A stretch of 42,357 nucleotides of DNA from a virus. Taxonomy: Duplodnaviria > Caudoviricetes. The stretch is from positions 1-42,357 of the IMG/VR virus record IMGVR_UViG_3300020414_000780, one strand, 5' to 3'. How positions within the stretch are numbered: the stretch's first letter is position 1; every line of letters begins with the position of its first letter. Shown here one piece after another: positions 1 through 42,357 of the stretch. The notes below the pieces were generated by a model that saw only the letters and a list, made by a program, of their open reading frames with translations, ran no database searches and had not been told where the DNA came from. The translations under genes and the position numbers were made by a program.

Positions 1-219
1 AAGCGTATGAACGCTGTGCTGAACCCCAGTGCTACCAGTCGTCGTGTTGATCCTGACACCTTTGATGAGCAGGAAGAGGTTGTGATGAAGTCACGCCAAC
101 AACAGCGTGAAGAGGAGCGTGTGGTTGACAAGGGTTTCAATGCACCCGACATCACTCCTAGCAACTCCAGTGATGATGACGATGCACTGTCATACTTCCA
201 AAGACTTGCTGAAGAGTGA
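1..219 (+). CDS. gp32: ssDNA-binding protein gp32, C-terminal fragment (5' truncated)
   Basis: Acidic tail ending DDDDALSYFQRLAEE is typical of cyanomyophage gp32; frame open from position 1; synteny with gp53/gp48. Confidence 0.9.
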   Translation, partial: KRMNAVLNPSATSRRVDPDTFDEQEEVVMKSRQQQREEERVVDKGFNAPDITPSNSSDDDDALSYFQRLAEE

Positions 220-242
220 GCAAAATCGACTTTTAGTTTCAT

Positions 243-274
243 AAATTGCCGGAAAAAAATCCCGGCAATTTTTT
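243..274. terminator. Intrinsic terminator between convergent gp32 and gp53, probably bidirectional
   Basis: Perfect 10-bp inverted repeat AAATTGCCGG (243-252) / CCGGCAATTT (262-271) followed by a T run. Confidence 0.8.
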
Positions 275-284
275 CCTACAGGGG

Positions 285-950
285 TCAACGAGGGGACAAA
301 ATCCTCAAGTTGACTCCTTTTTTAGTGCGTTTATCGATAAACTGAGAACTATCGGTATATGTCATGATTTCTCGCAAATCGTCTATAACCGTTTGTAGGT
401 ATTCTTTCCTTAAAACAAAAATCGTGCGTTTTTTGTCATTTAGAGCAATTTCGTAATCTAGGTTAGATACCGATTTTACCAAACCAGCACCTGCAAGCGA
501 AATTCGGATATTATCGTAAGTATACGAAAATGCGAAGTTTTCATCAACTATCATCCCACCAGTCAAAAGTAGATCTCCACCAGGATCTCTGATTTCGCGA
601 GTTTCCCAATGATGCACTTCTGTCAGTTCTTTCTCAGTATACTTAGCAGAGAGATATTCATAAAAATCTCCCTGTGTAACAGGCCATTCATTTCGAACAT
701 CTAGAATATTATTAGATAATAGGATTACCCAGTCTAAATCTGCCCTTCCATACATTTTTTCAGCAACGGTATCTGGTCTATCATCACCTACAATCGTAAA
801 CTGACCAAAAGTAAGAGCATTACGAAATAGATCTTCCCGAATCTTAGCACGACGGAAGATATTTTTGACTTTTACGTAATCGGTGCTGGAAGTACGACTG
901 TCGGTAAACGACTGGAGCAGTAGATCTGAAAACTGGTCGAAGTATGCCAT
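285..950 (-). CDS. gp53: Baseplate wedge subunit gp53
   Basis: MAYF start, KNIFRR, RPDTVAEKMYG...DWVILLSNNI...EWP LysM-like gp53 motifs. Confidence 0.9.
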   Translation of the reverse strand: MAYFDQFSDLLLQSFTDSRTSSTDYVKVKNIFRRAKIREDLFRNALTFGQFTIVGDDRPDTVAEKMYGRADLDWVILLSNNILDVRNEWPVTQGDFYEYLSAKYTEKELTEVHHWETREIRDPGGDLLLTGGMIVDENFAFSYTYDNIRISLAGAGLVKSVSNLDYEIALNDKKRTIFVLRKEYLQTVIDDLREIMTYTDSSQFIDKRTKKGVNLRILSPR

Positions 951-2437
951 TAGAATCCGATGTCTTCGCTGTTTAGAGGTTCTATACCTTTGACTGGGCT
1001 ACCAAAATCTTGGAACATATCTTGGAGTGATGGATCCTTACCATCATCCGCATCATAATCTTGAGCAAAGATTGGTGTTAACTCCGTAAAATTGAGTGTC
1101 ATTGATGACAAAACGGGTTGAGATCCTGCCTTCGAATCTTTATATGACTGATACTCCCCTTGTGGAGCAAAGTTAACCGTGCACTCGGTTAATGCACAAA
1201 TTTTGAATATATTTAGACCACGAATGCGTTCATTTCCAGTTCTATAACGAATCCGGAACACATCAGGAGAACCGAGGAAGATTAGATCGTTATTTTCTCC
1301 TCTTCTTGGCATCATTCCACGTCTGAAAAATCTCATGATTCTTCTAACTTCTGTTGCTTCTGCTTCACCATTTGGAGCAAACTCAAAGTTAAACTCAAAA
1401 TCTCTTAGTTTAGGACCATTGAATAGAAGTTCTAAGTTTGGGTTGATTGCATTACCAGATGCACGAGCAATAAACTGGTTAGGATCAACGTTAATGCCAA
1501 TTTTACCTAGACCATATTTTGCAGCAAGTGCTGTTAATAGTGTTCCTGTTCCACCAGTTGTACCTGTCGTACCAAGGATACTAGCAGCACCGCTAAGTAG
1601 ATCGTTCGCCAGTTCCTTTGTTGCACCGAAAAAGTTACCCTGTAGAAGCGGTTGTGCCGCATTGGTTGCAGTGTTAAAGGCAGCAGCAGTAAAAGCGTTC
1701 GCACTATCTGCACCCCAGTTCACTCCGTTTGTGAAGGCGAGCTGATTTGGGATTGGTAGTTTTACTAGTCCACGAAACTCTGAGATATTATTATTCCTTC
1801 GAAGACCGTTAATTAGAAATCCTGAAGAAACATTACTACCACGACCAGTTGCTGATCCAAACATGTTCTCTTGTGGAGGACTATAACTAAACATCTCAAT
1901 GATCATATGATCTTGAGAAAACTGGGGTTGATTGTAGGCATCAATCGGATATTTTAACGCTTTTGCTTTATCAAAATCCGGTAGTGCAGGCGCTGAACTG
2001 ATAACTCGTTTTGGATCAAATCCTCCCAAAGCCATCGTGGCAATTGGTTCTCTCTTCTGAGTTGCAAGCGGAGCAGGTGGAGTAAAGTTCGGAGCTTGTG
2101 GAGTTCCGGGAATATAAGGTACAGTTGCAGTCCAAACTGCACCTTGACCAGATTGATTAGCGTACTGGTTTGCTTCGGTTGCTAGTCCTAGGCTGTTGAC
2201 TTGTGCCTTTAACATTGATAGACTTATCTGAAAATCCTGTAGGTAACCACTGGATTTTGCAAGTTCTTTAAACTTGGCATCGCTAGGTTCAAAGACATTA
2301 GCGGGCGTGCTATCGTCGAAGATGGCAAATGGTCTTAAAAAGTCTTTAGTGGTAAGACGATAGAATCCACTATACTTTCTTCCCCTATATTCAAACTGAA
2401 ACTTTTGATAGGGTCTATTTTGAATGAAAGTGTTCAT
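950..2437 (-). CDS. gp48: Baseplate tail-tube cap gp48
   Basis: LKYP, LPIP, INPNLELLFNGPKLRDFEFNFEFAP, CALT, LNFTELTPI motifs; synteny. Confidence 0.85.
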   Translation of the reverse strand: MNTFIQNRPYQKFQFEYRGRKYSGFYRLTTKDFLRPFAIFDDSTPANVFEPSDAKFKELAKSSGYLQDFQISLSMLKAQVNSLGLATEANQYANQSGQGAVWTATVPYIPGTPQAPNFTPPAPLATQKREPIATMALGGFDPKRVISSAPALPDFDKAKALKYPIDAYNQPQFSQDHMIIEMFSYSPPQENMFGSATGRGSNVSSGFLINGLRRNNNISEFRGLVKLPIPNQLAFTNGVNWGADSANAFTAAAFNTATNAAQPLLQGNFFGATKELANDLLSGAASILGTTGTTGGTGTLLTALAAKYGLGKIGINVDPNQFIARASGNAINPNLELLFNGPKLRDFEFNFEFAPNGEAEATEVRRIMRFFRRGMMPRRGENNDLIFLGSPDVFRIRYRTGNERIRGLNIFKICALTECTVNFAPQGEYQSYKDSKAGSQPVLSSMTLNFTELTPIFAQDYDADDGKDPSLQDMFQDFGSPVKGIEPLNSEDIGF

Positions 2438-2832
2438 TTGTAGATGCTCCTACCACTGATGGAGATTTCTGCACCCCCTAGATTTCTTACAAACTCTTCA
2501 GCGGGCAGCAGTGCCGCTTTTTCCCATTCTGATGCTGCCACGTCTAAAAACAAACTTCTAACATTAGATTTCAAGTATTTATGGAACCCCGCCGACCCGA
2601 AGAGGAACCCTTTGTAATCTCCGACTCCGGACTCCTTGATCTCCCGGATATACTCTATGATTCCTACGCGATCCTTTGGTTTATAGTAATGTATATTGGT
2701 ACCGAAGAAGACCTCGTTCTCTTCGAGAACCATGACGACTAAAGGAGATTTGTCGTAATATGGAAGTTCTTGAGCAGTTTTTGCTTCGTATCTAAACATC
2801 ATAAGATTACCGACTGTGATGTCGGATGTCAT
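2434..2832 (-). CDS. gp2: DNA end protector gp2-like protein (start likely ATG at 2832, not 2970)
   Basis: MFRYEAKT..LPYYDKSPLV, GTNIHY, HKYL, EWEKAALLPAEEF motifs; directly downstream of gp4. Confidence 0.75.
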   Translation of the reverse strand: MTSDITVGNLMMFRYEAKTAQELPYYDKSPLVVMVLEENEVFFGTNIHYYKPKDRVGIIEYIREIKESGVGDYKGFLFGSAGFHKYLKSNVRSLFLDVAASEWEKAALLPAEEFVRNLGGAEISISGRSIYK

Positions 2833-2854
2833 CTCTGATTCTGGTAGTTGGGAT

Positions 2855-3289
2855 TTAAATTCCAAGTTCTTTTTCGGTGAAGATTTGAAACTCCCATAAT
2901 CTATCTTCGCAGTAGTCTTTTGCTGCTTTCCACTTTGCCTGGTTCTTGGCGTATTCGTAGACCTCAGCAACGTATTGCTTAGTCCGTGTTTTCTGTTTTC
3001 GTGGTTCTTTTACTTGTTTCGCCGGTTTGATTTCTATCAAACTTTCTTTCACTTTCCCACTTCTATCAGCATATTTGATGTAAAAATCTGGGAAATATCT
3101 ATGGTACTTATTATCTATGGGAGACTTATACGGTATGACAATCTCTTCAGATGACCACTTTAGAATACGTTCATTCAAGTCACAATATCTCATAAACTTA
3201 AGTTCCCATAGAGATCGATAAACAATGCCCGTAGGATCACCTTTGTATTTTTGGGGGTGAGACGGTTTAAACTTCCCCTTGTATGACAT
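2855..3289 (-). CDS. gp4: Head completion nuclease-fold protein gp4
   Basis: MSYKGKFKP..P.KYKGDPT.IVYRSLWE, WSSEE, HRYFPDF, IEIKP, NQAKW motifs. Confidence 0.92.
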   Translation of the reverse strand: MSYKGKFKPSHPQKYKGDPTGIVYRSLWELKFMRYCDLNERILKWSSEEIVIPYKSPIDNKYHRYFPDFYIKYADRSGKVKESLIEIKPAKQVKEPRKQKTRTKQYVAEVYEYAKNQAKWKAAKDYCEDRLWEFQIFTEKELGI

Positions 3290-15455: not shown

Positions 15456-18400
15456 ATGCCGCTGAGTAGACTAGAGAACTTTCTCAAGAATGTTCAAGGA
15501 AATGTCATCTATGTCAACCCCCTTGAACTAGATGCAACCGACGATATTAGTAATACTGGTAACTCCAGAGCACGTCCTTTCAAGACGATTCAGCGTGCGC
15601 TGATCGAGTCTGCGAGATTTTCGTACCAGATTGGTAAAGATAACGATAAATTTGACAAAACTACAATCCTGGTGTCTCCAGGTGTGCACTACATTGATAA
15701 CCGTCCAGGTTATGCAATCGACACAAGTGGAAATATTACTGACGTAAATGGTACGGTAAAAACCATTGACCAGTTTTCTGCTGGTACTAACTTTGATATC
15801 AATAATCCAAATAATGTATTACATCACTTCAACTCTGTTGATGGTGGTGTTATTCTGCCTCGTGGTACATCCATCGTTGGTCAGGATCTAAGAAAGACAA
15901 AGATCCGTCCTAAGTTTGTTCCAAACCCACTGAATGATAGCATCAAACCTAGCACGATCTTCCGTGTTACTGGTGCATGTTGGTTCTTTGGATTTACATT
16001 CTTTGATGGAGATCCTAACGATCGTGTTTACAAGGATTATACTGTAAGCACATTCAAACCAGACTTCTCACACCACAAACTAACCTGCTTCAGGTATGCT
16101 GATGGTGTCAATGAAATCACAGGTAAGGGTAATACTGACCTAGACATGTATTACTATAAGCTTACTCAAGCTTATGGTGCAAGTTCTGGTCGTGCACTAC
16201 CAAACTATCCTGCAAATACAGACTTTGAGAAGACCATCGACGAATGTAGAATCGTTGGTGCTATCTCCCAGATTGGTGACATCCAGATCACCGATCTATA
16301 CTCTGGATTGAACCCAACAGATCCTACTGCAACTTCTATCGTTACGGTAGAAACTAGCACTCCACACCAACTAGAAGTAGCGACACCTATTCTTATCTTT
16401 GGTGTTGATAATGCGGAGTATGATGGAAGTTTCCTCGTTACATCTGTTCCTTCCTCAACCAAGTTTACATACGCACTATCCAATCCACCAGTATCTACAT
16501 CAACTCCAAGTCTTGTAGGTAAGCAAGCATTTGTAACGATTGAAAGTGATAGTGTTCAGTCTGCTTCTCCATATATTTTCAACTGTTCGGTAAGATCTGT
16601 ATTCGGTCTTAGCGGCATGGATTGTGATGGTGATAAGGCAACTGGATTTAAGTCCATGGTTGTTGCCCAGTTCACTGGTGTCTCCCTGAACAAGGATGAC
16701 GACGCATACGTTAAGTATAACCCCACTACAGGCGTCTGGGAGGATCAAGCAACCCTAGGTACTAGTGTATCCCTACACACGGACAGTTTAGCGCGTCACA
16801 AACCCGACTGGGAGAACTTCCACGTCCGTGTTGCAAACAACGCCATCATTCAGGCAGTTTCGGTATTCGCTATCGGATATGCTCAGCACTTCCTGTCTGA
16901 GGCAGGTGGTGATATGTCTATCACCAACTCTAACTCTAACTTTGGTGCTAAATCGTTTGAGTCTGATGGTTTCCGTCCTGAAGCATTTACTAAGGATGAT
17001 ACTGCATATATCACATCGATTAAACCACCTGAGCGTATCAGTAAGAATGATCAGACGATCAACTTTAAGTCTATTGCCACAGTAAAAACTGCTACTGCAA
17101 GCACAGACACTAAACTATACATTGATGGGTTTGAACAGATCACCAATGTTCCAGAAACCACCATCAATAAGTATAAACTAGGTGCTAAGGTTGGTGATAA
17201 GATCTCGGTCAACATCGAGAGTCTTGTTTATGATGCCGACATTCTAATGCCGGTTCCTTTCAATGATCCAGACCGCAGAGTATCTGCTATTAAAGAGATC
17301 AAAGTTGGTAGAACATCTGGCATCAACTCTATCACAGGTAATACATTTACTCTACAGGAAGAACATAGTTTCTTGCCAGGTGAGTCGATCAGAATCATCT
17401 CTGATGATGGTTCTCTCCCTGATGGTCTAGATCACAATAGACTGTACTATGCCATTACTGATTCTCTAAATGCAGACCAGATCAGGATTGCAACCACTGA
17501 GACTAATGCATTGTCTAATGCTAGCCTTGTTGGTATCAACAACATTGGTGGCAGTCTAAGGATTATTTCTGCTGTATCTGACAAAGTTGCTGGTGATCCA
17601 GGTCACCCAGTACAGTTTGATGCTGATGGTTGGTACGTCAATGTTGGTGCAGGTAACTCACTACGAGCAGCGATTGTTTCTAACCAGGGATCACTTGTTC
17701 CTAAGACAAGAGTATCAACTCTAACCAGAAAACCAGACACCAGACTTAACAGAAACAAGGTCTACATGCCTAGACTTGTTATTCCTAAGTCTACGCCATT
17801 GGCATCACCACCGCAGAATGGATTCACTCTGCAGCAGACAGGTTCTATCATTGATGATACCAACTATCAGAATGATAATACCAGTCTAACATCTGAACTC
17901 GATATGAGAGCAGATGGTGCTATTATCAATGCATCATGGAGTTCTAATGTTGGTGTAGTTACTTGTCAGAATCCACATAGACTGAAGGTTGGTCATCAAG
18001 TACAGGTCTATCGTCTAAAGTCTGATAACAATGAGTCTGGTACAGATAACACCGGATTCAATGGTAAGTTTAACGTTCTAGGCGTTACTGATAGTAAGAC
18101 ATTCACTATTGGTATCAACACTGATCCAGGTGGTATCTCTACAATCACTGGCACCACTCCATATACAAGGAATGATGCATCTATTGTTGGTTCTGGTAGA
18201 ACCAGCATCCCATACTTTGTGAAGCGTGGGGTAGATAATGACTTCCAGATCTTCAATGCTTATGATATCCAAGAGTATAAGAAGGACATCCAAGATGGTG
18301 TTTATGATCTTCTACTCAAGGGATATGTTGCACAACCAGAGGTAACACCTTTCAACGTAGATAACAACAAGTTCTCTGTCAAGACTGGATACTTGTTCCC

Positions 18401-21014
18401 AAGGATTGATAGAGATAATCCTGTTGATGATCCAGCACCAACTAAATCTTATGCACAAAGAGATGATATTGGTGTTGTAGAACCAAGTGATCCAAAGAAC
18501 TCTACCTCTAGAGAAAACATTGAGTCCTTGATTGAAGAACTCGGTGTTGGTATTGGTATTACTGGTGCTAGTGTAAGTGGCACAGATTTGACTATCAATA
18601 CACTGGTAGACCACAACCTTAATGGTATTAAGGCATTCACACTTTCTTCGAATGGATCTAATCTAGGATCTGGTTCTGGTATTACTGAGAACTACTTTAA
18701 CGTACAACTAGAAGGTGGTGCTGGTAAGGGTGCTACTGCTAATGTTACCATCAATGCTTCTGGTCAGGTAGCATCTGTTTCGATTGTTGATCATGGTTCT
18801 AACTACAGCATCAATGATATTCTGACAATCAGAGGTATCCCAGATCAAGGTAGTCCTACTGAAGCAAGTATCACTGTAAGTGAGATTGACAATAGAATCG
18901 GTGATGTTGTTCAGATTGTTGGTGTTGGTAGTGAATCCTATAATGGTCTATTCAAGATCACAGCGATTCCAAGTTCCAAAGAGATTACCTACACTGGTGA
19001 TGCAGTCGATGCAGTAGCACAATCTGGTGGTTATGTCTATCATGCTGGTATTTCTACCGGAGTAACTTCTATTGCATGTGATGCCCTAACAGGTATTGCA
19101 ACAGTCATCATTGAGAAAGATCTCGGATTCGATAAAGGAGACTTTATTGTTATCGAAGGTTGTACTGGTGATTCTGCTGTCTATAACGGCACACATTACA
19201 TCCAAGATCGTATTGGTACTGGTCAAGAACTGTCAGTCTTTGTTGGATTCCCTGGTGTCATTCCTGCTCCAGCAATGGCAGGTACAGTTAGTGCATATTC
19301 TGATGGTATTGCACGCCGTGGCGAAGATAGACTCGTCCACATTTATGGTGGTGCTCATACTTATCTCAACACTTCTGGATTTACAGCAACATCAACAACC
19401 ATCGCACTAGAAGATAGTTCTATGATCAACAGGGGTGACTTCCTGTTGATTGGTGATGAGATTATTAGAGTCTCAAATACTAATGCCACCACTGTTATTC
19501 GTGGTGCAATGGGAACTAATGCTGTTGCACATGATAATGGTGTTGCTGTTAAGAAGATTAAGGTTATCCCTACAGAGACTAGAAGATATTCTATCCTCCG
19601 TGGTTCCGGTCATACATTTGAATATGTCGGATTTGGTCCAGGTAACTATTCTACTGCAATGCCGCAGACACAGGATAGAATCCTAACCGACGAGCAGAAA
19701 CTTCTATCTCAGTCAGTACAAACTAGAGGTGGTCTAGTTGCATACACTGGTATGGATGATGTGGGTGATTACTACATCGGACAGACTAGAATCGATGTTT
19801 CTACTGGTGAAGTTGAGTTCCTTGGTGGTGATGAGACATTCATCGAAGAGGAAGAGGTTGCTACATTCCTAGAACTAGATGAACTGATTGTTAACAATAA
19901 CCTATACAGTAACGGTAACACTGAGGTTATTGACATCCTCCTAAGAGGTAACCGTGGTGGTAACCTTGGTGCTAGTGTTTATGTTGGCATCTCGCAGAAT
20001 ACACCTCCAGAGTCTGATGGTCAGAACAACATTCTGTTCAAAGTTACTCCTACTTCTGGTAGTAATGCTGGTTGGGTTAAGACATCAACAGGATGGAGAA
20101 GATTTGCTCCAGTTTCACAATCACTATACAGTGATAGTTACAAGTTTGATGATCTAAACGCTGGTATCTCCACATTTACAAATGTAGATGTAACAACTCT
20201 TGACTCCACTGGTGCTGTTGACGTTGGCACTACATTGAATGTGGGTAGCAATATCACTGGTGGTGGTAATATCACAGTCACTGGTGATGTTAATGCTAAT
20301 GATGGTGACTTCAGTGGTAATATTGATGCAGTAGATGGTGACTTCACTGGTGACATTACTGCTGTAGATGGTACCTTCAGTGGTGCACTATCTGCACTGT
20401 CTGCCACGATCACAAACGCAATCACTGCTGGTTCTGCTGCCATTACTGGTGCACTTAGTGCTGGTTCTGCTACCATTTCTGGTGCAATCAGTGCTGCTTC
20501 TGGTAGTATTTCCGGTGCACTATCATCTGGAAGCATGAGCACAGGTGCACTTACTGCATCTAGTTTGAACAACCACAATATTCCTGGTGGTTCTGATACT
20601 CTTGCACGTATTAGTGATATTCCTTCTGAACTAGAAGGTGATGGAACTACTATCGTTGTTACTGGTGGTCAGATCTCCATTCCTAATAACTTCTTAGGAT
20701 CAGAGCACATCTCTGGTCAAAGTGGTAATGCACCAGTCTTTGGTGTTCGTGCTTTTGGTAGGATTACTGGAAACAGTGGTAGTTTGTCATACGGTCAAAA
20801 TGTTGCTAGCTCTGCCAGAACAGGCACAGGAACATATCGAGTCACATTATCTAATGGACCAGGAAACAATGACTTTACAGTTATTGCTACTGCAGAAGGT
20901 GATGATGATATGATCTACATTACCGACAGGAGCACTAATCAGTTTACTGTCCAGATTCGAAGTGACGGTGGCGATAAACAAAACAATGCTTTCCACTTCA
21001 TGGTTATCTTCTGA
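15456..21014 (+). CDS. Large virion structural/tail-fibre-like protein (1852 aa)
   Basis: MPLSRLENFLKN start, RPFKTIQRAL, PRGTSIVGQDLRKT, SGHTFEYVGFG.GNYST motifs; 10-residue repeats and fibre-tip-like C-terminus. Confidence 0.8.
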   Translation: MPLSRLENFLKNVQGNVIYVNPLELDATDDISNTGNSRARPFKTIQRALIESARFSYQIGKDNDKFDKTTILVSPGVHYIDNRPGYAIDTSGNITDVNGTVKTIDQFSAGTNFDINNPNNVLHHFNSVDGGVILPRGTSIVGQDLRKTKIRPKFVPNPLNDSIKPSTIFRVTGACWFFGFTFFDGDPNDRVYKDYTVSTFKPDFSHHKLTCFRYADGVNEITGKGNTDLDMYYYKLTQAYGASSGRALPNYPANTDFEKTIDECRIVGAISQIGDIQITDLYSGLNPTDPTATSIVTVETSTPHQLEVATPILIFGVDNAEYDGSFLVTSVPSSTKFTYALSNPPVSTSTPSLVGKQAFVTIESDSVQSASPYIFNCSVRSVFGLSGMDCDGDKATGFKSMVVAQFTGVSLNKDDDAYVKYNPTTGVWEDQATLGTSVSLHTDSLARHKPDWENFHVRVANNAIIQAVSVFAIGYAQHFLSEAGGDMSITNSNSNFGAKSFESDGFRPEAFTKDDTAYITSIKPPERISKNDQTINFKSIATVKTATASTDTKLYIDGFEQITNVPETTINKYKLGAKVGDKISVNIESLVYDADILMPVPFNDPDRRVSAIKEIKVGRTSGINSITGNTFTLQEEHSFLPGESIRIISDDGSLPDGLDHNRLYYAITDSLNADQIRIATTETNALSNASLVGINNIGGSLRIISAVSDKVAGDPGHPVQFDADGWYVNVGAGNSLRAAIVSNQGSLVPKTRVSTLTRKPDTRLNRNKVYMPRLVIPKSTPLASPPQNGFTLQQTGSIIDDTNYQNDNTSLTSELDMRADGAIINASWSSNVGVVTCQNPHRLKVGHQVQVYRLKSDNNESGTDNTGFNGKFNVLGVTDSKTFTIGINTDPGGISTITGTTPYTRNDASIVGSGRTSIPYFVKRGVDNDFQIFNAYDIQEYKKDIQDGVYDLLLKGYVAQPEVTPFNVDNNKFSVKTGYLFPRIDRDNPVDDPAPTKSYAQRDDIGVVEPSDPKNSTSRENIESLIEELGVGIGITGASVSGTDLTINTLVDHNLNGIKAFTLSSNGSNLGSGSGITENYFNVQLEGGAGKGATANVTINASGQVASVSIVDHGSNYSINDILTIRGIPDQGSPTEASITVSEIDNRIGDVVQIVGVGSESYNGLFKITAIPSSKEITYTGDAVDAVAQSGGYVYHAGISTGVTSIACDALTGIATVIIEKDLGFDKGDFIVIEGCTGDSAVYNGTHYIQDRIGTGQELSVFVGFPGVIPAPAMAGTVSAYSDGIARRGEDRLVHIYGGAHTYLNTSGFTATSTTIALEDSSMINRGDFLLIGDEIIRVSNTNATTVIRGAMGTNAVAHDNGVAVKKIKVIPTETRRYSILRGSGHTFEYVGFGPGNYSTAMPQTQDRILTDEQKLLSQSVQTRGGLVAYTGMDDVGDYYIGQTRIDVSTGEVEFLGGDETFIEEEEVATFLELDELIVNNNLYSNGNTEVIDILLRGNRGGNLGASVYVGISQNTPPESDGQNNILFKVTPTSGSNAGWVKTSTGWRRFAPVSQSLYSDSYKFDDLNAGISTFTNVDVTTLDSTGAVDVGTTLNVGSNITGGGNITVTGDVNANDGDFSGNIDAVDGDFTGDITAVDGTFSGALSALSATITNAITAGSAAITGALSAGSATISGAISAASGSISGALSSGSMSTGALTASSLNNHNIPGGSDTLARISDIPSELEGDGTTIVVTGGQISIPNNFLGSEHISGQSGNAPVFGVRAFGRITGNSGSLSYGQNVASSARTGTGTYRVTLSNGPGNNDFTVIATAEGDDDMIYITDRSTNQFTVQIRSDGGDKQNNAFHFMVIF

Positions 21015-21052
21015 TAACAATAAATACCAATAACGTAGGAGTGACTTAAGGG

Positions 21053-23422: not shown

Positions 23423-23424
23423 TA

Positions 23425-23763
23425 ATGGCAGCGATTCCACTTAATAAATTCCGAACTATTACTCATACTCTGACTAATACTTCGGTTGGTATCTACACCT
23501 GCCCACCGGGTGTTGCTGCTCTTATCATCTATGGCAACGTTGCTAACGTTGGTACTGGAACATCTGTGACTGAGTTCACAGTAGAACATACTAGGGACTC
23601 TATTGATACGCCTATTGTTCAGCGTGCACAGATTCCTAGTCAGGACGCAATGTCATTTATTGAAGGTCGTCTGGTTCTTGAGACTGGAGATATTCTCAAG
23701 ATCAAAGGTGAAACTGTCAACACTATGCAATGTGTTATTAGTATCCTAGAGAACGCGAAGTAA
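23425..23763 (+). CDS. Small virion structural protein
   Basis: LNKFRT..., IYTCP.G, GRLVLETGD, ISILE motifs; tight operon spacing. Confidence 0.7.
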   Translation: MAAIPLNKFRTITHTLTNTSVGIYTCPPGVAALIIYGNVANVGTGTSVTEFTVEHTRDSIDTPIVQRAQIPSQDAMSFIEGRLVLETGDILKIKGETVNTMQCVISILENAK

Positions 23764-28766: not shown

Positions 28767-29747
28767 ATGTTTTTTGCCGATCAATCAGATAAGTGGCATC
28801 ATTCTATGCAGAGGTATCTGGGTTTACCAGATGCCTCTTTTTTGTATGGTGTTATTCCGGGTGTATGTCGCGAGGTTGTAGGTAGACGCGACTGGATGTA
28901 TACACAACCAGAATGTTTTAACTCTAACAAAGTATATGTGTGGAGTGAATACCACGCAAAGAAGTTGGAGAAGTCTAGGATGCAATCATATTATGGTGCA
29001 TGTCCATTTCTATGGGATCTTGCCAAGGTTGCAACAACAGAATCATATGAACCTGAAGGTTCGTTATTCTTTATCCCACGAGATGATCAGGTTACTATTC
29101 GTGATGCTGATTACAGAAATGTTCAGGATGCTATCAACTGGGCATCACGTCCTATTAGATTCTTATTGCCATGGCGTGAATGTGACATCTGGAAAGAATG
29201 GAAGAACTTAAAGTTGCCTAAGGATAGTGAGTTCATCCAGATGAATGATCGTGTTAATAGACAGTTTATCTTGTCACGGTTATTCTTACAGTCCGAGCAC
29301 GTTTATATTCCTTGGCCCGGCACTGACATATACTATGCTGAGTTCCTTGGTAAGCATGTGCACATATATGACAGGTTAGAATATTACCGCACAAAAACTA
29401 TTGAGGAGTCTCCACAAAGTAAGACAAAGATTCTTCGTCATCTAAAATGGGGATGGGACTATCTGAATGACACTCAGAAGAAGTTCTTCGAGTATACAAA
29501 TACGTGGAGCATCTTACCTGAGGATGATCGTGCATTTATGACTGCAAAGATGCTAGGTCTCAGTCAACTAAAATCTCCAGAAGATCTATACAATGATCTC
29601 CTGGAGATAGGATTTCTTCGTGAAGAAGATAAACAGGTTGTAAATGAAGAGTATATTACTGCCTACGAATGGTTACGCGAGAAAACGATAAAAGTTAATA
29701 ATATTAAATGTAGTGATAGGTGTACTGATATATACGCTACTATTTAA
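28767..29747 (+). CDS. Hypothetical protein, possibly glycan-modifying
   Basis: 326-aa ORF next to the sugar island; no decisive motif. Confidence 0.55.
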   Translation: MFFADQSDKWHHSMQRYLGLPDASFLYGVIPGVCREVVGRRDWMYTQPECFNSNKVYVWSEYHAKKLEKSRMQSYYGACPFLWDLAKVATTESYEPEGSLFFIPRDDQVTIRDADYRNVQDAINWASRPIRFLLPWRECDIWKEWKNLKLPKDSEFIQMNDRVNRQFILSRLFLQSEHVYIPWPGTDIYYAEFLGKHVHIYDRLEYYRTKTIEESPQSKTKILRHLKWGWDYLNDTQKKFFEYTNTWSILPEDDRAFMTAKMLGLSQLKSPEDLYNDLLEIGFLREEDKQVVNEEYITAYEWLREKTIKVNNIKCSDRCTDIYATI

Positions 29748-30094
29748 AACTGACGAAAAAAGTCACTATCATTCCACCCCTTGTCGTCGATGTAATTCAT
29801 GGCACGGGGTTTACCGAAAAACAGTGCATCGTACTCAACACCCCATTCTTTTAGTTGTCGTTCGGTAAGTTCTCGCATGTTTTTATCAGCGAGTGCTTGA
29901 TCGTTGTTCGCCTTGACCATACCTCGTGCTGTCTGTAGGTAGATCGTAGCACCTTTCATCTTCAGATCATTGACAACATTGATTCGTGAAACGATGGGTT
30001 GTGAGTTCTCAACGTCACCCATCATTTCAGTGCACAGTGTCCCATCAATATCGAAGCAGTAAACTGGTGCACCTTCCGATACGTGTTGAATCAT
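29744..30094 (-). CDS. HAD-superfamily capsule-biosynthesis-type phosphatase
   Basis: FDIDGTLC motif I, TARG, YD.LFFGKP, YIDDK. Confidence 0.85.
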   Translation of the reverse strand: MIQHVSEGAPVYCFDIDGTLCTEMMGDVENSQPIVSRINVVNDLKMKGATIYLQTARGMVKANNDQALADKNMRELTERQLKEWGVEYDALFFGKPRAMNYIDDKGWNDSDFFRQF

Positions 30095-30552
30095 GGGAGT
30101 TCGGGTAACTTGACTCCATTATACTCCATGAGCATGTAGATTGTCCAGAGGGCGTTGACTTCAAACTCGTGATAGTATCTGGATGGGATACAGATTGTGT
30201 GAATGTATGGCGTCTCGATCTTCTTAGGTGCGATGACTGTTGTAGGGATACCAAAAGCAAACTCGTCTAAGACTCTGATCATAGGCGATTGATTTCGTGC
30301 ACTGATACCTAACACCATGTCACAGTGTTGTGCAGCATATGCCATCCACTCATACTTCCAATCAATGTCATTACCAACAGCAGTAAGGTGAACACTATCA
30401 GGAGCAAAGCAGAACTTTCCTGTGTGCCGTTGTATATCAGACGCAGCATGTTGTGCAATGGCAAGATTACCACCACTGCCAATGATCGCAATGCGTGATG
30501 CTTTATCCAGCATCTTAGCACCAAGACTTATGTCAACGTTTTGCAAGTTCAT
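30091..30552 (-). CDS. SIS-domain phosphosugar isomerase (GmhA-like)
   Basis: IIGSGGNLAIAQHAASD, LTAVGND, LGISA.N.S motifs. Confidence 0.75.
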   Translation of the reverse strand: MNLQNVDISLGAKMLDKASRIAIIGSGGNLAIAQHAASDIQRHTGKFCFAPDSVHLTAVGNDIDWKYEWMAYAAQHCDMVLGISARNQSPMIRVLDEFAFGIPTTVIAPKKIETPYIHTICIPSRYYHEFEVNALWTIYMLMEYNGVKLPELP

Positions 30553-31243
30553 GCTCGATCTCTTGTATGTGCCAGGAGCGATCCACAGCCCTTATTTTAC
30601 CACATTTCAGGTCAAATGGCGACACTTGATACTTACCACAGAATCCGATGGTGTCAAGTCCACCCCAATGTTTGACAAATGTCATGTCTAAGTTTGGGAA
30701 GTCTCGTATAACATTTAGTCTATACATGTAGAGACCCAACTGTGTCACAGTGTTGGCGGTGATAATATCTGGTGTTCTCACCATATGTGTTACCACACCA
30801 TTATTGACAACCATCTTTACAACATCGTCATCAGCAATCTCATCGGGTTCTAGTTCCCGTGATGCTTGCACCATGTCACAGTCATGTGTAACACCATATT
30901 CAATCATGTCGTCAATCCATTGAGGATCAGTCAGTGGTTCATCCCCTTGTAGATTAACAATATAATCACTTTCCAGAGTTTCAGATACCTCTGCCACGCG
31001 ATGAGTGCAGGTATAGTGTCTGCCTGTGATTCGTGATTCATATCCATTGACTTCACACGTTCGTTTGATTACTTCGTCTTCAGTAGCAACAATGATATGA
31101 TCAAGGTATTTAGATTTACGAGCAATATCTGCTACTCGTAGCACCATCTCACGCCCATTGATTCGTGCAAGTGGTTTACCAGGAAACCTGCCGGATGACA
31201 TTCTAGCAGGAATAATGCAAATAATCTGTTTACCTTTGAACAT
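30533..31243 (-). CDS. kdsB: CMP-Kdo synthetase-like cytidylyltransferase
   Basis: IIPARMSSGRFPGKPLA.ING, IVATED, VNLQGDEP, VKMV, GLYMY, AVD. Confidence 0.85.
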   Translation of the reverse strand: MFKGKQIICIIPARMSSGRFPGKPLARINGREMVLRVADIARKSKYLDHIIVATEDEVIKRTCEVNGYESRITGRHYTCTHRVAEVSETLESDYIVNLQGDEPLTDPQWIDDMIEYGVTHDCDMVQASRELEPDEIADDDVVKMVVNNGVVTHMVRTPDIITANTVTQLGLYMYRLNVIRDFPNLDMTFVKHWGGLDTIGFCGKYQVSPFDLKCGKIRAVDRSWHIQEIEHELAKR

Positions 31244-31253
31244 AATGTAGGGG

Positions 31254-31282
31254 TTGACAACTTGGCGTAATCTATGTAGACT
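31254..31282 (+). promoter_or_regulatory. sigma70-type promoter pointing antisense to the 31310-32218 gene
   Basis: TTGACA (31254-31259), 17-bp spacer, TAGACT (31277-31282). Confidence 0.55.
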
Positions 31283-31309
31283 GACTCTGTTCCCGTTAAA
31301 GGGTGGGCT

Positions 31310-32218
31310 TTAGCTTAATACTTTAGGAAAGAAATCGTTAAGGACATTATAGTACCTGTCAAAGTATTTGTCCACTAGATTAGAGCATTTCATCGTCATA
31401 TCTGTCTGAACAATAGGATCAAACCACCTAGGATCATTGGAGATGAAGTCTAATGTCTTCTCTATGTTAAACTTTTCCTTGTAATCTTCGTCATTAGATA
31501 TATCTAACCATTCCCATTCACATTCGTTTTCTTCTAGACATTTGATATATGTCCTAAACTTGTGAAGTTGTTCTTTGAATAGATTCTCTACCGCTTTGAA
31601 GTCCTGTAAGAATTCTGGATTGGTGCTACCTAAAAGATCTAGCAGTAGATACTTATATCCTTGAGATTTGTATGGTATAACATGCTTATACTTCTTTAGA
31701 TCTATGTTAATAGTTTCATCTCTCATTGAGACTGTTGAACACACTAGATCAGGATCAGCATTATCAAAGATACGCTGAATGTTCTCCATGACAGGTATAT
31801 TCTTGTCTAGGTATTCTGGGATCTTGGTTGGATCAGGTATGTCTATCTCATCCCAGTTGATTGCATCTGGGTTAGTATCTTGATGCCATTCATACCATTC
31901 TTTTCGTGTTTGGAGCACATGATCTTGACTTTCAAAGATATAGTTGCCTGCCCAAAATGCAGGGATCATGGCACATGGTTGAATAAAGAACTCGTTTGAC
32001 TGTATATCTGTCTTGTCTTCGTCAAAGTCCTTGCTAAGAACTAGTGTGCGATTGTATAAGTAATCGTCTACAATCTCACCCCATGCAAAGACACACTTAT
32101 CACCTGGTGATTTTTCACCAAAGTATCTTAGTGACGTTCTACCATTGAGTTCAAATAGAGCACATGCATGATCTTTACCGAAGATCTGTGGTGCCCAGTA
32201 CATATACTTTTGAGTCAT
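31310..32218 (-). CDS. Hypothetical protein, paralog of 32218-33105
   Basis: Shares KY.YWAP..FGK.HAC, PDL.C, YKHV.PYKS, W.WLDIS..YK with its neighbour. Confidence 0.7.
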   Translation of the reverse strand: MTQKYMYWAPQIFGKDHACALFELNGRTSLRYFGEKSPGDKCVFAWGEIVDDYLYNRTLVLSKDFDEDKTDIQSNEFFIQPCAMIPAFWAGNYIFESQDHVLQTRKEWYEWHQDTNPDAINWDEIDIPDPTKIPEYLDKNIPVMENIQRIFDNADPDLVCSTVSMRDETINIDLKKYKHVIPYKSQGYKYLLLDLLGSTNPEFLQDFKAVENLFKEQLHKFRTYIKCLEENECEWEWLDISNDEDYKEKFNIEKTLDFISNDPRWFDPIVQTDMTMKCSNLVDKYFDRYYNVLNDFFPKVLS

Positions 32219-33105
32219 CAGTTCTTCACCTCAGGGTAGAGTAGATTTAGTCTTTCGCTCCGTGATATAATATATCTCTCAGCAAGTAAGTAATAGTAAT
32301 CAATACGATCTGTTCTTATCTCAGGTGACATCCATTTGTGGTCTGCCATATCATGATCAGGAATGTTTTGCAATCCAAAGTATTTGTAGTTCTCCCATTT
32401 GGATATGTCTAACCACTGCCAGTCAATATCTTGTAGTCTCAGATAATCTAGTAGTCGTTCAAAATGGACTAGACGTTGATCTAGAAAAGCGAATACTTTA
32501 GCAGTTGATAGACCATCAATGTCTAGGATTGTCAGATATTCAAACACCAGTTGCTTGAAGTCTGTGGACTTGTATGGTACAACGTGCTTGTAATCAGCAT
32601 AGTTTATATCAACATTCACGGGCAATGGTTCTTCTAAACAGATAAGATCTGGATTGAAGTCACGCACCATAATACTCAGGTTATCTAACCATGTATTGTT
32701 CTCATCTACTTTGTGCTCAGGAAATGCACAGTCTGGGATATGCTCACTAGGTAGATCATTGAGCATACGATTACGGGTTAGTTCTCCCTCAGTCATCGCT
32801 TTATTCTCATGCTGTGGGATGTATGCATGATCAGGATCACCAGCAATAAACTTGCTTCTGATACACTGTGATGTGTATATGTCTTTCTTCCTTACTGATA
32901 GTGATTCAACCTGCACTTTGCCAGGGAATCCGTGCCTATTATACTTCTCTTGGTCGATTACTGTGCCAGAGAATACTTGAAACCCTTCACCATATGTTCC
33001 ATACTTCATCGACACCTTGTTATTTGCTGCAAAGGTAAAGCAAGCATGACTCTTACCAAAGCAAGATGGTGCCCAATAAATGTATTTTGTCATAGATGTT
33101 GACAT
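32218..33105 (-). CDS. Hypothetical protein with N-terminal P-loop-like motif
   Basis: APSCFGKS fits [AG]-x4-GK-[ST] after a hydrophobic strand. Confidence 0.65.
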   Translation of the reverse strand: MSTSMTKYIYWAPSCFGKSHACFTFAANNKVSMKYGTYGEGFQVFSGTVIDQEKYNRHGFPGKVQVESLSVRKKDIYTSQCIRSKFIAGDPDHAYIPQHENKAMTEGELTRNRMLNDLPSEHIPDCAFPEHKVDENNTWLDNLSIMVRDFNPDLICLEEPLPVNVDINYADYKHVVPYKSTDFKQLVFEYLTILDIDGLSTAKVFAFLDQRLVHFERLLDYLRLQDIDWQWLDISKWENYKYFGLQNIPDHDMADHKWMSPEIRTDRIDYYYLLAERYIISRSERLNLLYPEVKN

Positions 33106-35530: not shown

Positions 35531-36616
35531 ATGCCACGCACCATCAACAGCAAGCAACACATCGACGCCTTGGTTGACACCTTTGGCACAGAACTAAATG
35601 CTGATATGGTTAAGGCATACTGCAATCAGTCTGGTGTGTCTTACCAAACCATCACTAAGTATCTCAATCAGTACAAAGTTTCTCGTGGTCACTGGAATCT
35701 GACCGTTGATGAAGTTAAAGAACAACTAGAGCAAACTGTTGCTCAAGTTGGCAAGACTGAATCTGTTCACCAAAATCTCGTTCCCGCTAAAGATGATACC
35801 TTCGTCCAGTTTGGCAACTTTAGTAACCTTAAAAAGGTTATTGCGTCCCGTGCTTTCTATCCAGTCTTCATTACTGGAATGTCTGGCAACGGTAAAACGT
35901 TCGGTGTTGAGCAAGCGTGTGCACAACTCAGCAGAGAACTGATCCGTGTCAATATCACTGTAGAGACTGATGAGGATGACCTGATCGGTGGTTTTCGTCT
36001 CGTTAATGGTGAAACAGTGTGGCACAATGGTCCTGTGATTGAAGCATTGCAGCGTGGTGCTGTGTTGTTGCTTGACGAGGTAGATCTGGCATCTAATAAG
36101 ATCTTGTGCCTGCAATCTATCATGGAAGGTAAGGGTGTCTTCCTTAAAAAGATTGGTGAGTATATCAAACCCGCTGCTGGTTTCACTATCATTGCCACTG
36201 CAAACACTAAGGGCAAGGGTTCTGATGATGGACGATTCATCGGCACGAATGTACTTAACGAGGCATTTCTTGAGCGTTTCCCAGTGACATTTGAGCAGGA
36301 GTATCCTACACCTGCTGTTGAGAATAAGATGCTTCGTGCTACATGTGAAGCACTGAATGTTCCTCTCACTGGTGATGTTGAGCAGTTCATTGCCTATCTG
36401 TGTGACTGGGCAGATATTGTCCGCAAGACATTCAAAGATGGTGGCATTGATGAGATCATTTCTACACGTCGTCTTGTGCACATTATCCGTGCCTATGCTA
36501 TCTTCGGCAAGAAAATGATGGCAGTTGAGATGTGCCTAAATCGTTTTGACGAGGAGACTAAATCTTCCTTTATCCAACTTTACACCAAACTTGACGGAGA
36601 AACTGATGCAGAGTGA
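35531..36616 (+). CDS. cobS: CobS-like MoxR-family AAA+ ATPase
   Basis: GMSGNGKT Walker A, LLLDEVD Walker B, ATANTKG, NEAFLERF, ISTRRL. Confidence 0.92.
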   Translation: MPRTINSKQHIDALVDTFGTELNADMVKAYCNQSGVSYQTITKYLNQYKVSRGHWNLTVDEVKEQLEQTVAQVGKTESVHQNLVPAKDDTFVQFGNFSNLKKVIASRAFYPVFITGMSGNGKTFGVEQACAQLSRELIRVNITVETDEDDLIGGFRLVNGETVWHNGPVIEALQRGAVLLLDEVDLASNKILCLQSIMEGKGVFLKKIGEYIKPAAGFTIIATANTKGKGSDDGRFIGTNVLNEAFLERFPVTFEQEYPTPAVENKMLRATCEALNVPLTGDVEQFIAYLCDWADIVRKTFKDGGIDEIISTRRLVHIIRAYAIFGKKMMAVEMCLNRFDEETKSSFIQLYTKLDGETDAE

Positions 36617-39375: not shown

Positions 39376-39419
39376 ACTGTCACATTGATTACATACAGTC
39401 AGGGTTATTGCACTATAAT
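39363..39419 (+). promoter_or_regulatory. Palindrome + -10 early promoter, copy 3
   Basis: Perfect TGACAG-N8-CTGTCA, 31 nt, TATAAT. Confidence 0.75.
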
Positions 39420-39730: not shown

Positions 39731-39735
39731 TCGTG

Positions 39736-39792: not shown

Positions 39793-39814
39793 ATGTTCAT
39801 CAGCAAAGGACACC

Positions 39815-40084
39815 ATGAAAGTCGCGATCAACTATCCCAAACTCATCAACAAGACAATCGAACAAACTTACTACTACTATCCCGTCAAGCGTTACACTGG
39901 TGGTGTTGATGAAGATCGCGTACTTCGCATTGTCGAGTTCTCCAATGGTCTCAAATCTCAACAGGTTATTAGCACAAAAGATGCACATTATGATATTTGT
40001 GCTCGCTATCGTTCTGGAGCAGAGCATGTAGAATCTCTGAGAAACTATCCTCAACTTGTTAATCGTTTCGCCTGCGCTTGCTGA
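39815..40084 (+). CDS. Hypothetical early protein (start MKVAIN)
   Basis: AAGGA RBS; follows promoter copy 4. Confidence 0.65.
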   Translation: MKVAINYPKLINKTIEQTYYYYPVKRYTGGVDEDRVLRIVEFSNGLKSQQVISTKDAHYDICARYRSGAEHVESLRNYPQLVNRFACAC

Positions 40085-40087
40085 TTC

Positions 40088-40492
40088 ATGACCACACTCA
40101 TTGCTGAAAAGATCCACGACTATTGTGAAGAATACACTGCTATTCTTCGCTCTAGTTTCATCAAGTGGCGTATTTCTCACCACATTCACGCTATTCAAAA
40201 TGATGACTGCCCTGACTATCATGCTGACAAGATTGATGAACTTACTTCAGGTGAAGCAGAAAACGTGCCTAAGTATGAAATCACAGTCGGTAAGAAGTAT
40301 TTCAAAATCATCCTTAATGATGGATCGTCACGCTCAGTACATGCTTTCGTACACAAAGAGACAGGAGATGTGTTTAAGTCCGCTACATGGAATCGTCCCG
40401 CAAAAGATGCACGTTACAACATTCTGATCGATGAAGATCGGGAGCATTGCTTCAACTCTGTTGACCCATTCGGTTCTTATCTCTACAAATGA
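40088..40492 (+). CDS. Conserved cyanophage early hypothetical protein
   Basis: GKKYFKI...RSVHAFV.KETGDVFK.ATW..PAK.ARYNI motif. Confidence 0.75.
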   Translation: MTTLIAEKIHDYCEEYTAILRSSFIKWRISHHIHAIQNDDCPDYHADKIDELTSGEAENVPKYEITVGKKYFKIILNDGSSRSVHAFVHKETGDVFKSATWNRPAKDARYNILIDEDREHCFNSVDPFGSYLYK

Positions 40493-40686
40493 CTGACACT
40501 ATCGTTGATCGCGACCAACTGCAAAACGACCTGATTGAGAGAATCATTGATGATATGGATCTCAAAACCATGGCAGCATTGTTGTATGACATGCTAGACG
40601 ATTCTTACGACAAATATAGTGTCGATGAGATTATTGCAGAAGCAGAGGAATACTATCCAGACCTCATAGGACAGTCTGAAGACTGA
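40489..40686 (+). CDS. Small acidic hypothetical protein
   Basis: IIDDMDLKT...EYYPDL; ATGA overlap. Confidence 0.7.
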   Translation: MTDTIVDRDQLQNDLIERIIDDMDLKTMAALLYDMLDDSYDKYSVDEIIAEAEEYYPDLIGQSED

Positions 40687-40726
40687 CCACTCATGACCCC
40701 ATCAGTGCTGCTGGTGGGGTTATACT
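40669..40726 (+). promoter_or_regulatory. Palindrome + -10 early promoter, copy 5, driving the nuclease-methylase operon
   Basis: GGAC-N12-GACC, 32 nt, TATACT; GAGGA RBS. Confidence 0.7.
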
Positions 40727-40748
40727 ATGTTCAACAGCACAGAGGACC

Positions 40749-41282
40749 ATGGCAGGAGGAATCCAACCCGGCACCGTTGCCACCGATGCAAACGCTCGCA
40801 GACTTGATGAGCAATGCAAGCACCTTAAGGATGAGGTTTTTGCTGTGTTGAGTGAGATCTATCCTGATCTTACTATTCAGCGTAAACTCACAAAGGATCA
40901 GATCCCTGGCGGCATTGGTGCATGTGAACCCGATGGCGGTGCATGGTTCTACAAAGGTGTGCTGATTGCAGTATTTGAAGGTAAGAAACAACAGGATGCA
41001 GGTAATGCAATCGAGCGATGGTTCAAGAACAACTATATCAGCAAGATGATCAATCCTTCCTGTTCTTATGTCACTTTCTGCACTGGTGAAGGTGCATACA
41101 GCACTGGTGCGATTGGCAAGGGATTGAATATCGCTCACCTGAATGGATTCAATGAATACTTTCCTGGTGAGAATAGTGCATTTTTGTCAATAGACCCCTT
41201 TACTCGTGAGTTCATCAATGCTACAATGATTGAAGTAGTTGGTGAACGTATCAACGCACTCTTTCCGGAGGTGGGCGAATGA
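40749..41282 (+). CDS. EcoRI-family PD-(D/E)XK restriction endonuclease-like protein
   Basis: PDGG, EGKKQ and AGNAIER..KN match EcoRI PDGG/EAKHQ/AGNAIERSHKN. Confidence 0.8.
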   Translation: MAGGIQPGTVATDANARRLDEQCKHLKDEVFAVLSEIYPDLTIQRKLTKDQIPGGIGACEPDGGAWFYKGVLIAVFEGKKQQDAGNAIERWFKNNYISKMINPSCSYVTFCTGEGAYSTGAIGKGLNIAHLNGFNEYFPGENSAFLSIDPFTREFINATMIEVVGERINALFPEVGE

Positions 41283-42214
41283 AACCACTCTTTATGTGGG
41301 CAGGTGGGAAGACTAGAGTCATTAAACATTACTCTCAGTTTATGCCACAAGACTTCAGAACATACTATGAACCATTCTTCGGTGGTGGTGCTATGTTTGT
41401 TCATGTGATGAATAACTATAAACCAGATCATGTGGTCTTGAATGATGCTAACGAGGGCATCATCAACATCTATCGTGCTATTAGATCTGATGTTGGTGAG
41501 TTCATCAATCATCTGGAATCACTGAGTGCAAAGTATATCCCATTGAATAAAGAGGATCGCAAGAAGTTATACTATGACATAAGACATGAACATGCATACA
41601 ACTATCTGTCATGGTCACCAATACAAGAAGCGGCGACATTATACTTTCTGATGAGAACTGGATTCAATGGAATCTGGCAGATCAATAAGAACACAAACAA
41701 CAGGTTTGGTACACCATCAGGACTATTAAATCAGAAAGATGTAATCTATGACATAGAAGTTGTGAGATGGTGGCATCATGCATTGCAGAACGTTATCATC
41801 GCCAAGGGTGATTGGCGTGATGTTTGTGGTGATGATCCTACTGGATTTTTCTTCTTCGATCCTCCGTACCGTGATAGTTTCGCAGACTACGGAAATGCGT
41901 TCGATAATGATGCATTAACTGATTTAATCGATTTTGCTGACCGGCAGGAGCAAGTCTTCGTCTGCAACCGTGCCGATGACGATTATTTCGATAATATCAA
42001 CAACTCGTTAAATGTGCATTACTTTGACATCACATACACTGCGGGAAGACGTAAAAGAACTGATCAGGGTCATGCTGCAAAGAAAGCACGAGAGATTTTA
42101 CTCTATAAAGTAAAGAGAAATAATCCATTGATGGACAGTCTGCAAGGTGTCCCCTTAGCAGCACAGCAGGGGGATAACCCTGTTATGATTAGTGCAACAA
42201 AGCAAAGGACATGA
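41279..42214 (+). CDS. Dam/D12-family N6-adenine DNA methyltransferase, probably not GATC-specific
   Basis: WAGGK, YYEPFFGGGA, LND, FNG...P.G hairpin, DPPY. Confidence 0.9.
   Translation: MKPLFMWAGGKTRVIKHYSQFMPQDFRTYYEPFFGGGAMFVHVMNNYKPDHVVLNDANEGIINIYRAIRSDVGEFINHLESLSAKYIPLNKEDRKKLYYDIRHEHAYNYLSWSPIQEAATLYFLMRTGFNGIWQINKNTNNRFGTPSGLLNQKDVIYDIEVVRWWHHALQNVIIAKGDWRDVCGDDPTGFFFFDPPYRDSFADYGNAFDNDALTDLIDFADRQEQVFVCNRADDDYFDNINNSLNVHYFDITYTAGRRKRTDQGHAAKKAREILLYKVKRNNPLMDSLQGVPLAAQQGDNPVMISATKQRT
42133..42189 (+). promoter_or_regulatory. Palindrome + -10 early promoter, copy 6
   Basis: GGAC-N12-GTCC, 31 nt, TG-extended TATGAT; AAGGA RBS. Confidence 0.7.
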
Positions 42215-42357
42215 ACAGCAAGGTCGCCCAGCATCTGTCAATCCCCGAGAATCGCATCAACTATTCTTTTCACTTTCTTGATGAGTTTGGTCCTGATTTT
42301 GTAGATTACAAAAAATGTTATGATGCCATTGCAAAATGGTCTGACAAACTTGACACC
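42211..42357 (+). CDS. Hypothetical protein (3' truncated)
   Basis: ATG after AAGGAC; open to the window end (MNSKVAQHLSIPENR...). Confidence 0.65.
   Translation, partial: MNSKVAQHLSIPENRINYSFHFLDEFGPDFVDYKKCYDAIAKWSDKLDT

Follow-up and report, generated by a model that had tools for sequence, protein, structure and literature searches.

The window analyzed here, a 42,357-nt stretch (57.8% AT) covering positions 1 to 42,357 of IMG/VR virus record IMGVR_UViG_3300020414_000780, is severely depleted of the tetranucleotide AATT through synonymous codon choice, and it carries a gene for a minimal EcoRI-fold endonuclease followed by a D12/Dam-family N6-adenine methyltransferase gene. We favor, with a probability of roughly two-thirds, the explanation that the depletion reflects selection against self-cleavage by an AATT-cutting enzyme of the phage itself, combined with incomplete protection of replicating phage DNA. 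This reading builds on a depletion brought about by synonymous changes, on the homology of the nuclease to EcoRI, on the altered Dam recognition residues of the methylase, and on the co-occurrence of nuclease gene and depletion in relatives. By its gene content, the window is a fragment of a T4-like cyanomyovirus (family Kyanoviridae), with T4-type baseplate, tail-tube, head-closure, and end-protector genes plus CobS, and with cyanophages as nearest relatives.

Exactly 26 AATT sites occur in the window, against 295.5 expected from base composition, which bears out the hand count of about 26 versus roughly 300 in the first-pass annotation of this DNA. A first-order Markov model lowers the expectation to 242.8, and a second-order model lowers it to 172.2; in the latter, the observed-to-expected ratio (O/E) is 0.15 and the z score of -14.3 is the lowest among all 256 tetramers. 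AATA, AATC, and AATG are plentiful (211, 230, and 266 occurrences), as had been claimed, and TTAA, TATA, and ATAT, the remaining palindromes composed of A and T alone, lie close to expectation (0.91 to 1.03). In 500 synonymous-codon shuffles of the 45 genes (40,734 nt), AATT was found 231 +/- 12 times (minimum, 185) versus 24 times in the actual sequences (z, -17.6), with the deficit concentrated at codon junctions. Depending on the null model, the O/E of the window is 0.10 to 0.15, and the depletion thus survives both trinucleotide and codon correction, the checks that had been proposed for it, rather than approaching 1. Specifically, GAA, AAA, and CAA precede TTN codons 2, 6, and 0 times, whereas their synonyms GAG, AAG, and CAG do so 42, 46, and 32 times, the members of each pair being used about equally overall in the window genes. 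Similarly, AAT and AAC occur 7 versus 106 times before T-starting codons (399:287 elsewhere), and ATT and ATC occur 9 versus 95 times after A-ending codons (434:330 elsewhere). The codon pairs suspected of compensating for the avoided site are each in excess, namely, GAA-CTA (18 versus 8.4 expected), GAG-ATT (20 versus 11.2), and AAG-TTT (26 versus 8.7).

The same deficit extends to G004, an 80-kb contig of the same phage (99.9% identical over the overlap), in which the 80,000 nt examined should contain 337 AATT sites but have 42. Each of the four xAATT words is low in this phage (0.08 to 0.23), and none occurs in three nuclease-carrying relatives (G001 to G003). Every flanking base of AATT is therefore affected, which points to a four-base target and rules out the six-base candidates GAATTC, CAATTG, and RAATTY; the single GAATTC reported earlier is indeed the only one, at 31610. 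The surviving sites are unevenly spread, as 10 of them lie within the first 2.9 kb, a clustering matched by 0 of 20,000 random placements, and this gp53/gp48 region is possibly a more recently recombined module. The first-pass annotation had also pointed to AATT-free stretches at 15653-23446 and after 35430. Both are free of the site, but they are not exceptional given 26 sites, since a gap of at least 7.8 kb arose in 14% of random placements (P = 0.14), and they were discarded as special features.

The nuclease open reading frame (ORF) encodes 177 amino acids (aa) and belongs to phrog_2400, which is annotated as of unknown function. Its predicted model (predicted local distance difference test score [pLDDT], 87.7) retrieved EcoRI in all five best Foldseek rows, and VIA scored the model against EcoRI at Z 14.7 (root mean square deviation, 2.8 over 156 residues), with the next row at 8.4 and MunI at 6.5. 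At the sequence level, a Pfam search with the window nuclease gave no hit, including to the EcoRI family PF02963, for which homologs score 15 to 20 bits, below the gathering cutoff of 22. Searches of the PDB with the single sequence and with a close alignment likewise found no relative, and a wider profile of 86 family members was needed, which matches EcoRI at an E value of 3e-12. The nuclease displays P61-D62, E77-x-K79, Q81, and G85-N86-A87-I88-E89-R90; the profile aligns D62/E77/K79/Q81 with EcoRI D91/E111/K113/Q115 and the GNAIER stretch (85-90) with EcoRI 140-145, so that N86/A87/R90 correspond to N141/A142/R145. D62/E77/K79 are conserved in at least 90% of the 86 members, N86 and R90 are invariant, and A87 is nearly so. 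EcoRI residues 118-137, a segment that helps read the outer base pair, have no counterpart in the family. Contacts of EcoRI N141, A142, and R145 with the central AT and TA pairs are described in PMC4081073. On its modeled fold, catalytic triad, and inner-AATT motif, the window protein is an EcoRI-like PD-(D/E)XK endonuclease, and homology together with co-occurrence predicts that it cuts AATT.

The methylase ORF overlaps the nuclease stop codon by 4 nt. It has a D12 domain with the DPPY motif, and the R124-type residue of GATC-specific Dam enzymes is absent. In the alignment to EcoDam (2g1p), K9 is replaced by M6 and R124 by Q134, with L122 kept as I132 and P134 as P146; Q occupies the R124 position in 39 of 39 aligned carrier methylases. 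In the account of EcoDam in PMC4417163, R124 reads the fourth base pair and K9 helps read the first, and the two replacements thus make GATC specificity unlikely. Consistently, GATC is not avoided in the window genes (271 versus 210 in codon shuffles). Retention of the inner-AT readers with change of the outer-pair readers would fit an AATT target, and the methylase is accordingly predicted from its sequence to mark AATT. A methylase gene lies within 1.5 kb downstream of the nuclease gene in 39 of 43 loci (L001-L043), and the pair shows, at the level of genes, the linkage of endonuclease and methyltransferase typical of Type IIP systems.

The nuclease was found in 65 of 50,697 phage records, all of them Synechococcus phages; the 60 of these 65 matches that were listed belong to S-RIM2 (homolog SWTG_00030) and S-BM1, and S-CREM2 is also a carrier. 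Among 42 viral carrier loci, the median AATT O/E was 0.38 (range, 0 to 0.72; 30 of 42 below 0.5), versus 0.83 (0.54 to 1.08; 0 of 80 below 0.5) in control loci, which were retrieved by CobS and do not contain the nuclease within the locus. A whole-contig nuclease search of 19 of the 80 control contigs, most of them incomplete, gave no match. Metagenome carrier loci of at least 4 kb, 40 shorter ones being excluded, had a median of 0.40 (26 of 40 below 0.5). CCGG, TTAA, CATG, GTAC, and TGCA did not differ between carrier and control loci. Cultured phages repeat the pattern, with AATT O/E values of 0.31 in S-RIM2 (whole genome) and 0.27 in S-BM1 (80 kb sampled) versus 0.68 to 1.00 in 14 noncarriers (40 to 60 kb sampled each). 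Synechococcus WH7803 is the recorded host of both of these carriers and of the noncarriers S-IOM18 (0.81) and S-PM2 (1.00). On a CobS tree of 38 rows, five carriers fall in five separate places, requiring five changes (S-BM1 is not on it, as its sampled DNA has no CobS). S-RIM2 and S-IOM18 are sisters on this tree (97/92), and the sister of the window is L044/G013 (100/98). The syntenic G013 has an AATT O/E of 0.79, with 96 sites versus 14 in the window over 23 kb of aligned DNA, and no cassette was found at its syntenic site in the 2.7 kb from the shared upstream gene to the contig end. Upstream of that site, G013 has two methyltransferase-like ORFs (L044:13958-15323), and its TGCA O/E is 0.25; in another record, G007, TGCA is at 0.16 and CGCG at 0.15. 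Among 79 loci fetched by the methylase, 20 of which were dropped for short flanks, the median AATT O/E was 0.47 with a nuclease-family match (n = 32) and 0.79 without one (n = 27; P = 0.0016). These contrasts support the earlier proposal of long-term selection against the target of an AATT-cutting nuclease, as depletion tracks the EcoRI-fold gene across relatives. That proposal had left the owner of the nuclease unnamed; the evidence favors an enzyme of the phage over one of the host, with AATT cutting deduced from homology and co-occurrence.

In the self-cleavage explanation, rewording of codons would have removed about 9 in 10 AATT sites from phage DNA that the EcoRI-fold nuclease, a predicted AATT cutter, would cut wherever the adjoining methylase had not yet protected it. 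Both enzymes would be active during infection, and imperfect methylation of fast-replicating phage DNA would be the source of selection. The longer the cassette has been resident in a lineage, the deeper the depletion would then be. Methylase loss would be survivable only with zero AATT sites, and nuclease loss would leave a relic depletion.

In some relatives the cassette is split. G001, G002, and G003 have no AATT in 73.9, 111.9, and 90.0 kb (233, 340, and 282 sites expected); their nuclease gene is followed by an unrelated gene, and no methylase match was found on these contigs. L333, a similar locus in which the nuclease has no neighboring methylase, has 0 AATT versus 55 expected. However, the zero-site records all come from one lineage (identity is 99.99% between G002 and G003, with G001 at 87%), and they are 41 to 63% complete, so an unlinked methylase may exist. 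Besides the phage of the window, 5 of 13 carrier records analyzed over long stretches are near background, namely, S-CREM2 (AATT O/E, 0.64), whose methylase is only 31% identical, G005 (0.69), G006 (0.82), G008 (0.63), and G011 (0.62); the carrier G034 (0.58) is near background as well. A further lineage (L336, L338, L339, L340, L341, and G032) is undepleted (0.73 to 0.98), its nuclease motifs look intact, and its short contigs show no methylase. Conversely, G036 (171.6 kb, 90% complete) has the methylase and an AATT O/E of 0.14 in all pieces, and a sensitive profile search of it detected no nuclease. Its syntenic kin L363 has the nuclease gene between flanks shared with G036, the two differing there by a clean indel, and the depletion of G036 may be a relic of nuclease loss. 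Carrier loci differ from controls in AGCT and GGCC too, both being lower in carriers, though less strongly than AATT, and the loci include near-duplicates and cover different genome regions, which overstates the significance of these comparisons. The counterexamples might be absorbed by recent acquisition of the cassette, by methylases encoded away from it, and by relic depletion. L357 to L360, with the methylase and no nuclease match, are at 0.21 to 0.25, and G041, in which the same methylase type stands next to an unrelated 288-aa ORF, is at 0.22; the latter suggests a second, unrelated AATT nuclease beside this methylase type. The same methylase type also lies behind ORFs of about 290 aa without a Pfam hit in L375:9129-9995, L356:1648-2526, and L425:1933-2844, and in other viruses it adjoins 160- to 168-aa ORFs that match MunI in Pfam and have the motif GNAHER (L364:2507-2995, L404:521-1003, and L411:9498-10004).

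Avoidance of a host-encoded AATT restriction enzyme, with the phage methylase as an antirestriction shield and the nuclease gene as a captured passenger, would account for the strong depletion of the methylase-only G036 and L357 to L360 and for the undepleted nuclease carriers, and restriction-site avoidance is described as common in nontemperate phages (PMC6286503). We nevertheless consider it improbable: phages recorded on the same strain, WH7803, differ by cassette status, and the catalytic residues are conserved family-wide, including in the lineage without a methylase. Moreover, when 185,579 prokaryote species genomes were scanned for the nuclease-family pattern, one relative turned up, in an Aquirufa metagenome-assembled genome (contig of 2,951 nt), and none in cyanobacteria. 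A search of plasmids for the nuclease family found none; these prokaryote and plasmid searches cover this family with limited sensitivity, and a host AATT enzyme of another family may exist. Hardly any more probable, and if anything slightly less so, is a cost residing in the methyl mark itself, by which N6-methyladenine at AATT in phage DNA would attract modification-dependent (Type IV) host nucleases or disturb regulation, so that methylase carriers would purge the site. The depletion of G036 and its kin with the methylase alone speaks for it, as does the depletion, here and in noncarriers, of RGCY, which is reported in PMC8919816 to be methylated more often than any other motif in marine myovirus-like genomes. 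Yet the most extreme depletion, zero sites, is seen where no cognate methylase was found, and near-background values prevail among the 27 methylase loci that lack a nuclease match. That the depletion is an inherited compositional or mutational bias of the lineage, unrelated to the nuclease, appears very unlikely. A mild shortage of many palindromes is common to all these phages, with AATT at 0.68 to 1.00 in the cultured noncarriers, but the depletion is junction-specific and survives codon shuffling, the carriers are scattered on the CobS tree, and the closest sister is not depleted, a contrast that largely refutes a lineage bias.

What the cassette would be for is a matter of our own judgment. 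We rank first, at somewhat less than even odds, an attack on the host chromosome, which would be unprotected, in the early phase of infection, serving takeover and the salvage of nucleotides, because of an analogy with chloroviruses and because T4-like cyanophages lack denA, ndd, and denB; in a review of these phages (PMC2984593), they are said either to degrade host DNA poorly or to do so by an undescribed method. Exclusion of coinfecting phages comes next, as a clearly weaker candidate, with pure selfish persistence close behind it. Confined as it is to some lineages, the cassette cannot be a universal answer to host-DNA degradation.

Features of the window discussed here, with their positions
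Feature	Position	Strand	Basis or remark
AATT depletion via synonymous codon choice	1..42357	none	26 sites, O/E 0.10-0.15
Ten clustered AATT sites (26 in all)	244..2861	none	5' intergenic stretch plus gp53, gp48, gp2, and gp4 genes
CobS-like ATPase	35531..36616	+	phrog_249; lineage marker for controls and tree
TATACT box and conserved bases downstream of it, preceding the nuclease start	40721..40751	+	Repeat family D1
Minimal EcoRI-fold PD-(D/E)XK endonuclease, 177 aa	40749..41282	+	Predicted model, profile, motifs
D12/Dam-family N6-adenine methyltransferase, 311 aa, DPPY	41279..42214	+	PF02086, E 1e-30; TIGR00571 above cutoff

The TATACT element ahead of the nuclease gene resembles copies at 39414 and 39787 and is not among the calls of a sigma-70 promoter scan of the window; it is a possible shared promoter element, and early expression from it would be a guess. 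An extra ORF of 300 to 350 aa, absent in the window, lies between nuclease and methylase in 17 loci (e.g., L001:20614-21669), and several of these intervening ORFs have a DGQH motif that we take to be ParB/DndB-like. S-RIM2 has a second, distant Dam-like gene elsewhere in its genome. CobS matched 460 phage records at an E value of <1e-60, 450 of which are named Synechococcus, Prochlorococcus, or Cyanophage, and on its relatives the host is likely a cyanobacterium. No tRNA genes were found in the window. The stretch 28767-33105 is a variable island that is likely devoted to surface-sugar metabolism; it encodes a cytidylyltransferase (PF02348), and its further ORFs are SIS-like, HAD-like, or, for three of about 300 aa, unknown. 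Positions 35954-36147 inside CobS have no match in the otherwise 99.9% identical G004, as an assembly gap or an indel.

Other words are depleted as well. The first-pass annotation did not mention the deficit in RGCY. The RGCY words are low in the window under the second-order model (observed/expected: AGCT, 21/95; GGCT, 7/65; AGCC, 9/41; GGCC, 2/28), stand at 0.06 to 0.15 of the codon-shuffled expectation, and are also low in most noncarrier cyanophages, which excludes this deficit as a cassette-specific trait. The low TGCA of the window (0.68, Markov) is an artefact, as the ratio is 1.04 under codon shuffling. CCGG, of which the window keeps 42, is wholly absent in the DNA examined from S-RIM2 (175 kb), S-BM1, and 10 of 14 noncarriers. 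Other tetramers are missing from the sampled DNA of other phages, namely, GTAC in S-SM1, TCGA in ACG-2014d, and both GCGC and CGCG in P-SSM7, and GATC has an O/E of 0.17 in S-RIM8. As a bolder and rather doubtful proposal, T4-like cyanophages might use mobile, self-encoded four-base restriction enzymes as the missing host-DNA-degradation machinery, protected by genome rewriting, the extreme being the loss of the methylase with every site erased; the AATT cassette would then be one of a wider arsenal marked by absent CCGG, GTAC, TCGA, or GCGC/CGCG.

The cassette is a concrete candidate for part of the gap in cyanophage host-DNA degradation, and its presence in the cultured S-RIM2 and S-BM1 makes it directly testable. 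If self-cleavage is the correct explanation, site avoidance in a phage can report its own enzyme rather than that of its host, which matters for host inference from avoidance, and such viruses would possess an unrecognized weapon against the DNA of hosts or rivals. An AATT cutter of 177 aa would also be a minimal EcoRI relative, one that helps explain how a four-base core is extended to six-base specificity. AATT-specific systems of the Sse9I type probably show such a nuclease-methylase pairing as well. Among papers on restriction, methylation, and cyanophages found in a collection with few subscription journals, none describes, by its title or the opening of its abstract, the cassette or AATT avoidance by cyanophages. 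In its passages on restriction, methylation, and endonucleases, the S-CREM2 paper (PMC10665884) regards the methylase as nothing other than a DNA adenine methylase, and NCBI names the S-CREM2 member of the nuclease family "restriction endonuclease."

EcoRI, RsrI, MunI, and MluCI form a named group, and Type II restriction genes are described as rare on phages (PMC4081073). Like EcoRI (Type IIP, G^AATTC; 1eri and 2oxv), the window nuclease has the fold, the PD...ExK residues, the equivalent of Q115, and a GNAIER motif that would read the inner AATT. Unlike EcoRI, it has 177 rather than 277 aa at about 18% identity, misses residues 118-137, stays below the Pfam cutoff, has a predicted four-base target, and resides on a lytic-type phage with a Dam/D12 methylase as partner. 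That methylase shares with EcoDam, T4 Dam, and M.DpnII the PF02086 and TIGR00571 profiles, DPPY, and the equivalents of L122 and P134, and differs from Dam/D12 enzymes in the R124-to-Q and K9-to-M replacements and in its coupling to a nuclease gene. Chlorovirus restriction-modification, as portrayed in PMC7019647, is similar in that a lytic virus has adjacent endonuclease and methylase genes with short sites, thought to degrade host chromatin and said there not to cause mutual exclusion. The chloroviruses, however, are unrelated viruses of eukaryotic hosts that package the enzymes in the virion, whereas genome-wide self-avoidance marks the present case. The restriction-site avoidance treated in PMC6286503 is also a depletion of short palindromes by synonymous change in double-stranded DNA phages; that study pairs phages with host-encoded enzymes, whereas here the depletion follows a phage-encoded one. 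Collectively, Type II restriction-modification and site avoidance are known kinds of system, and what would be new is a lytic-type cyanophage that avoids the site of its own minimal EcoRI relative.

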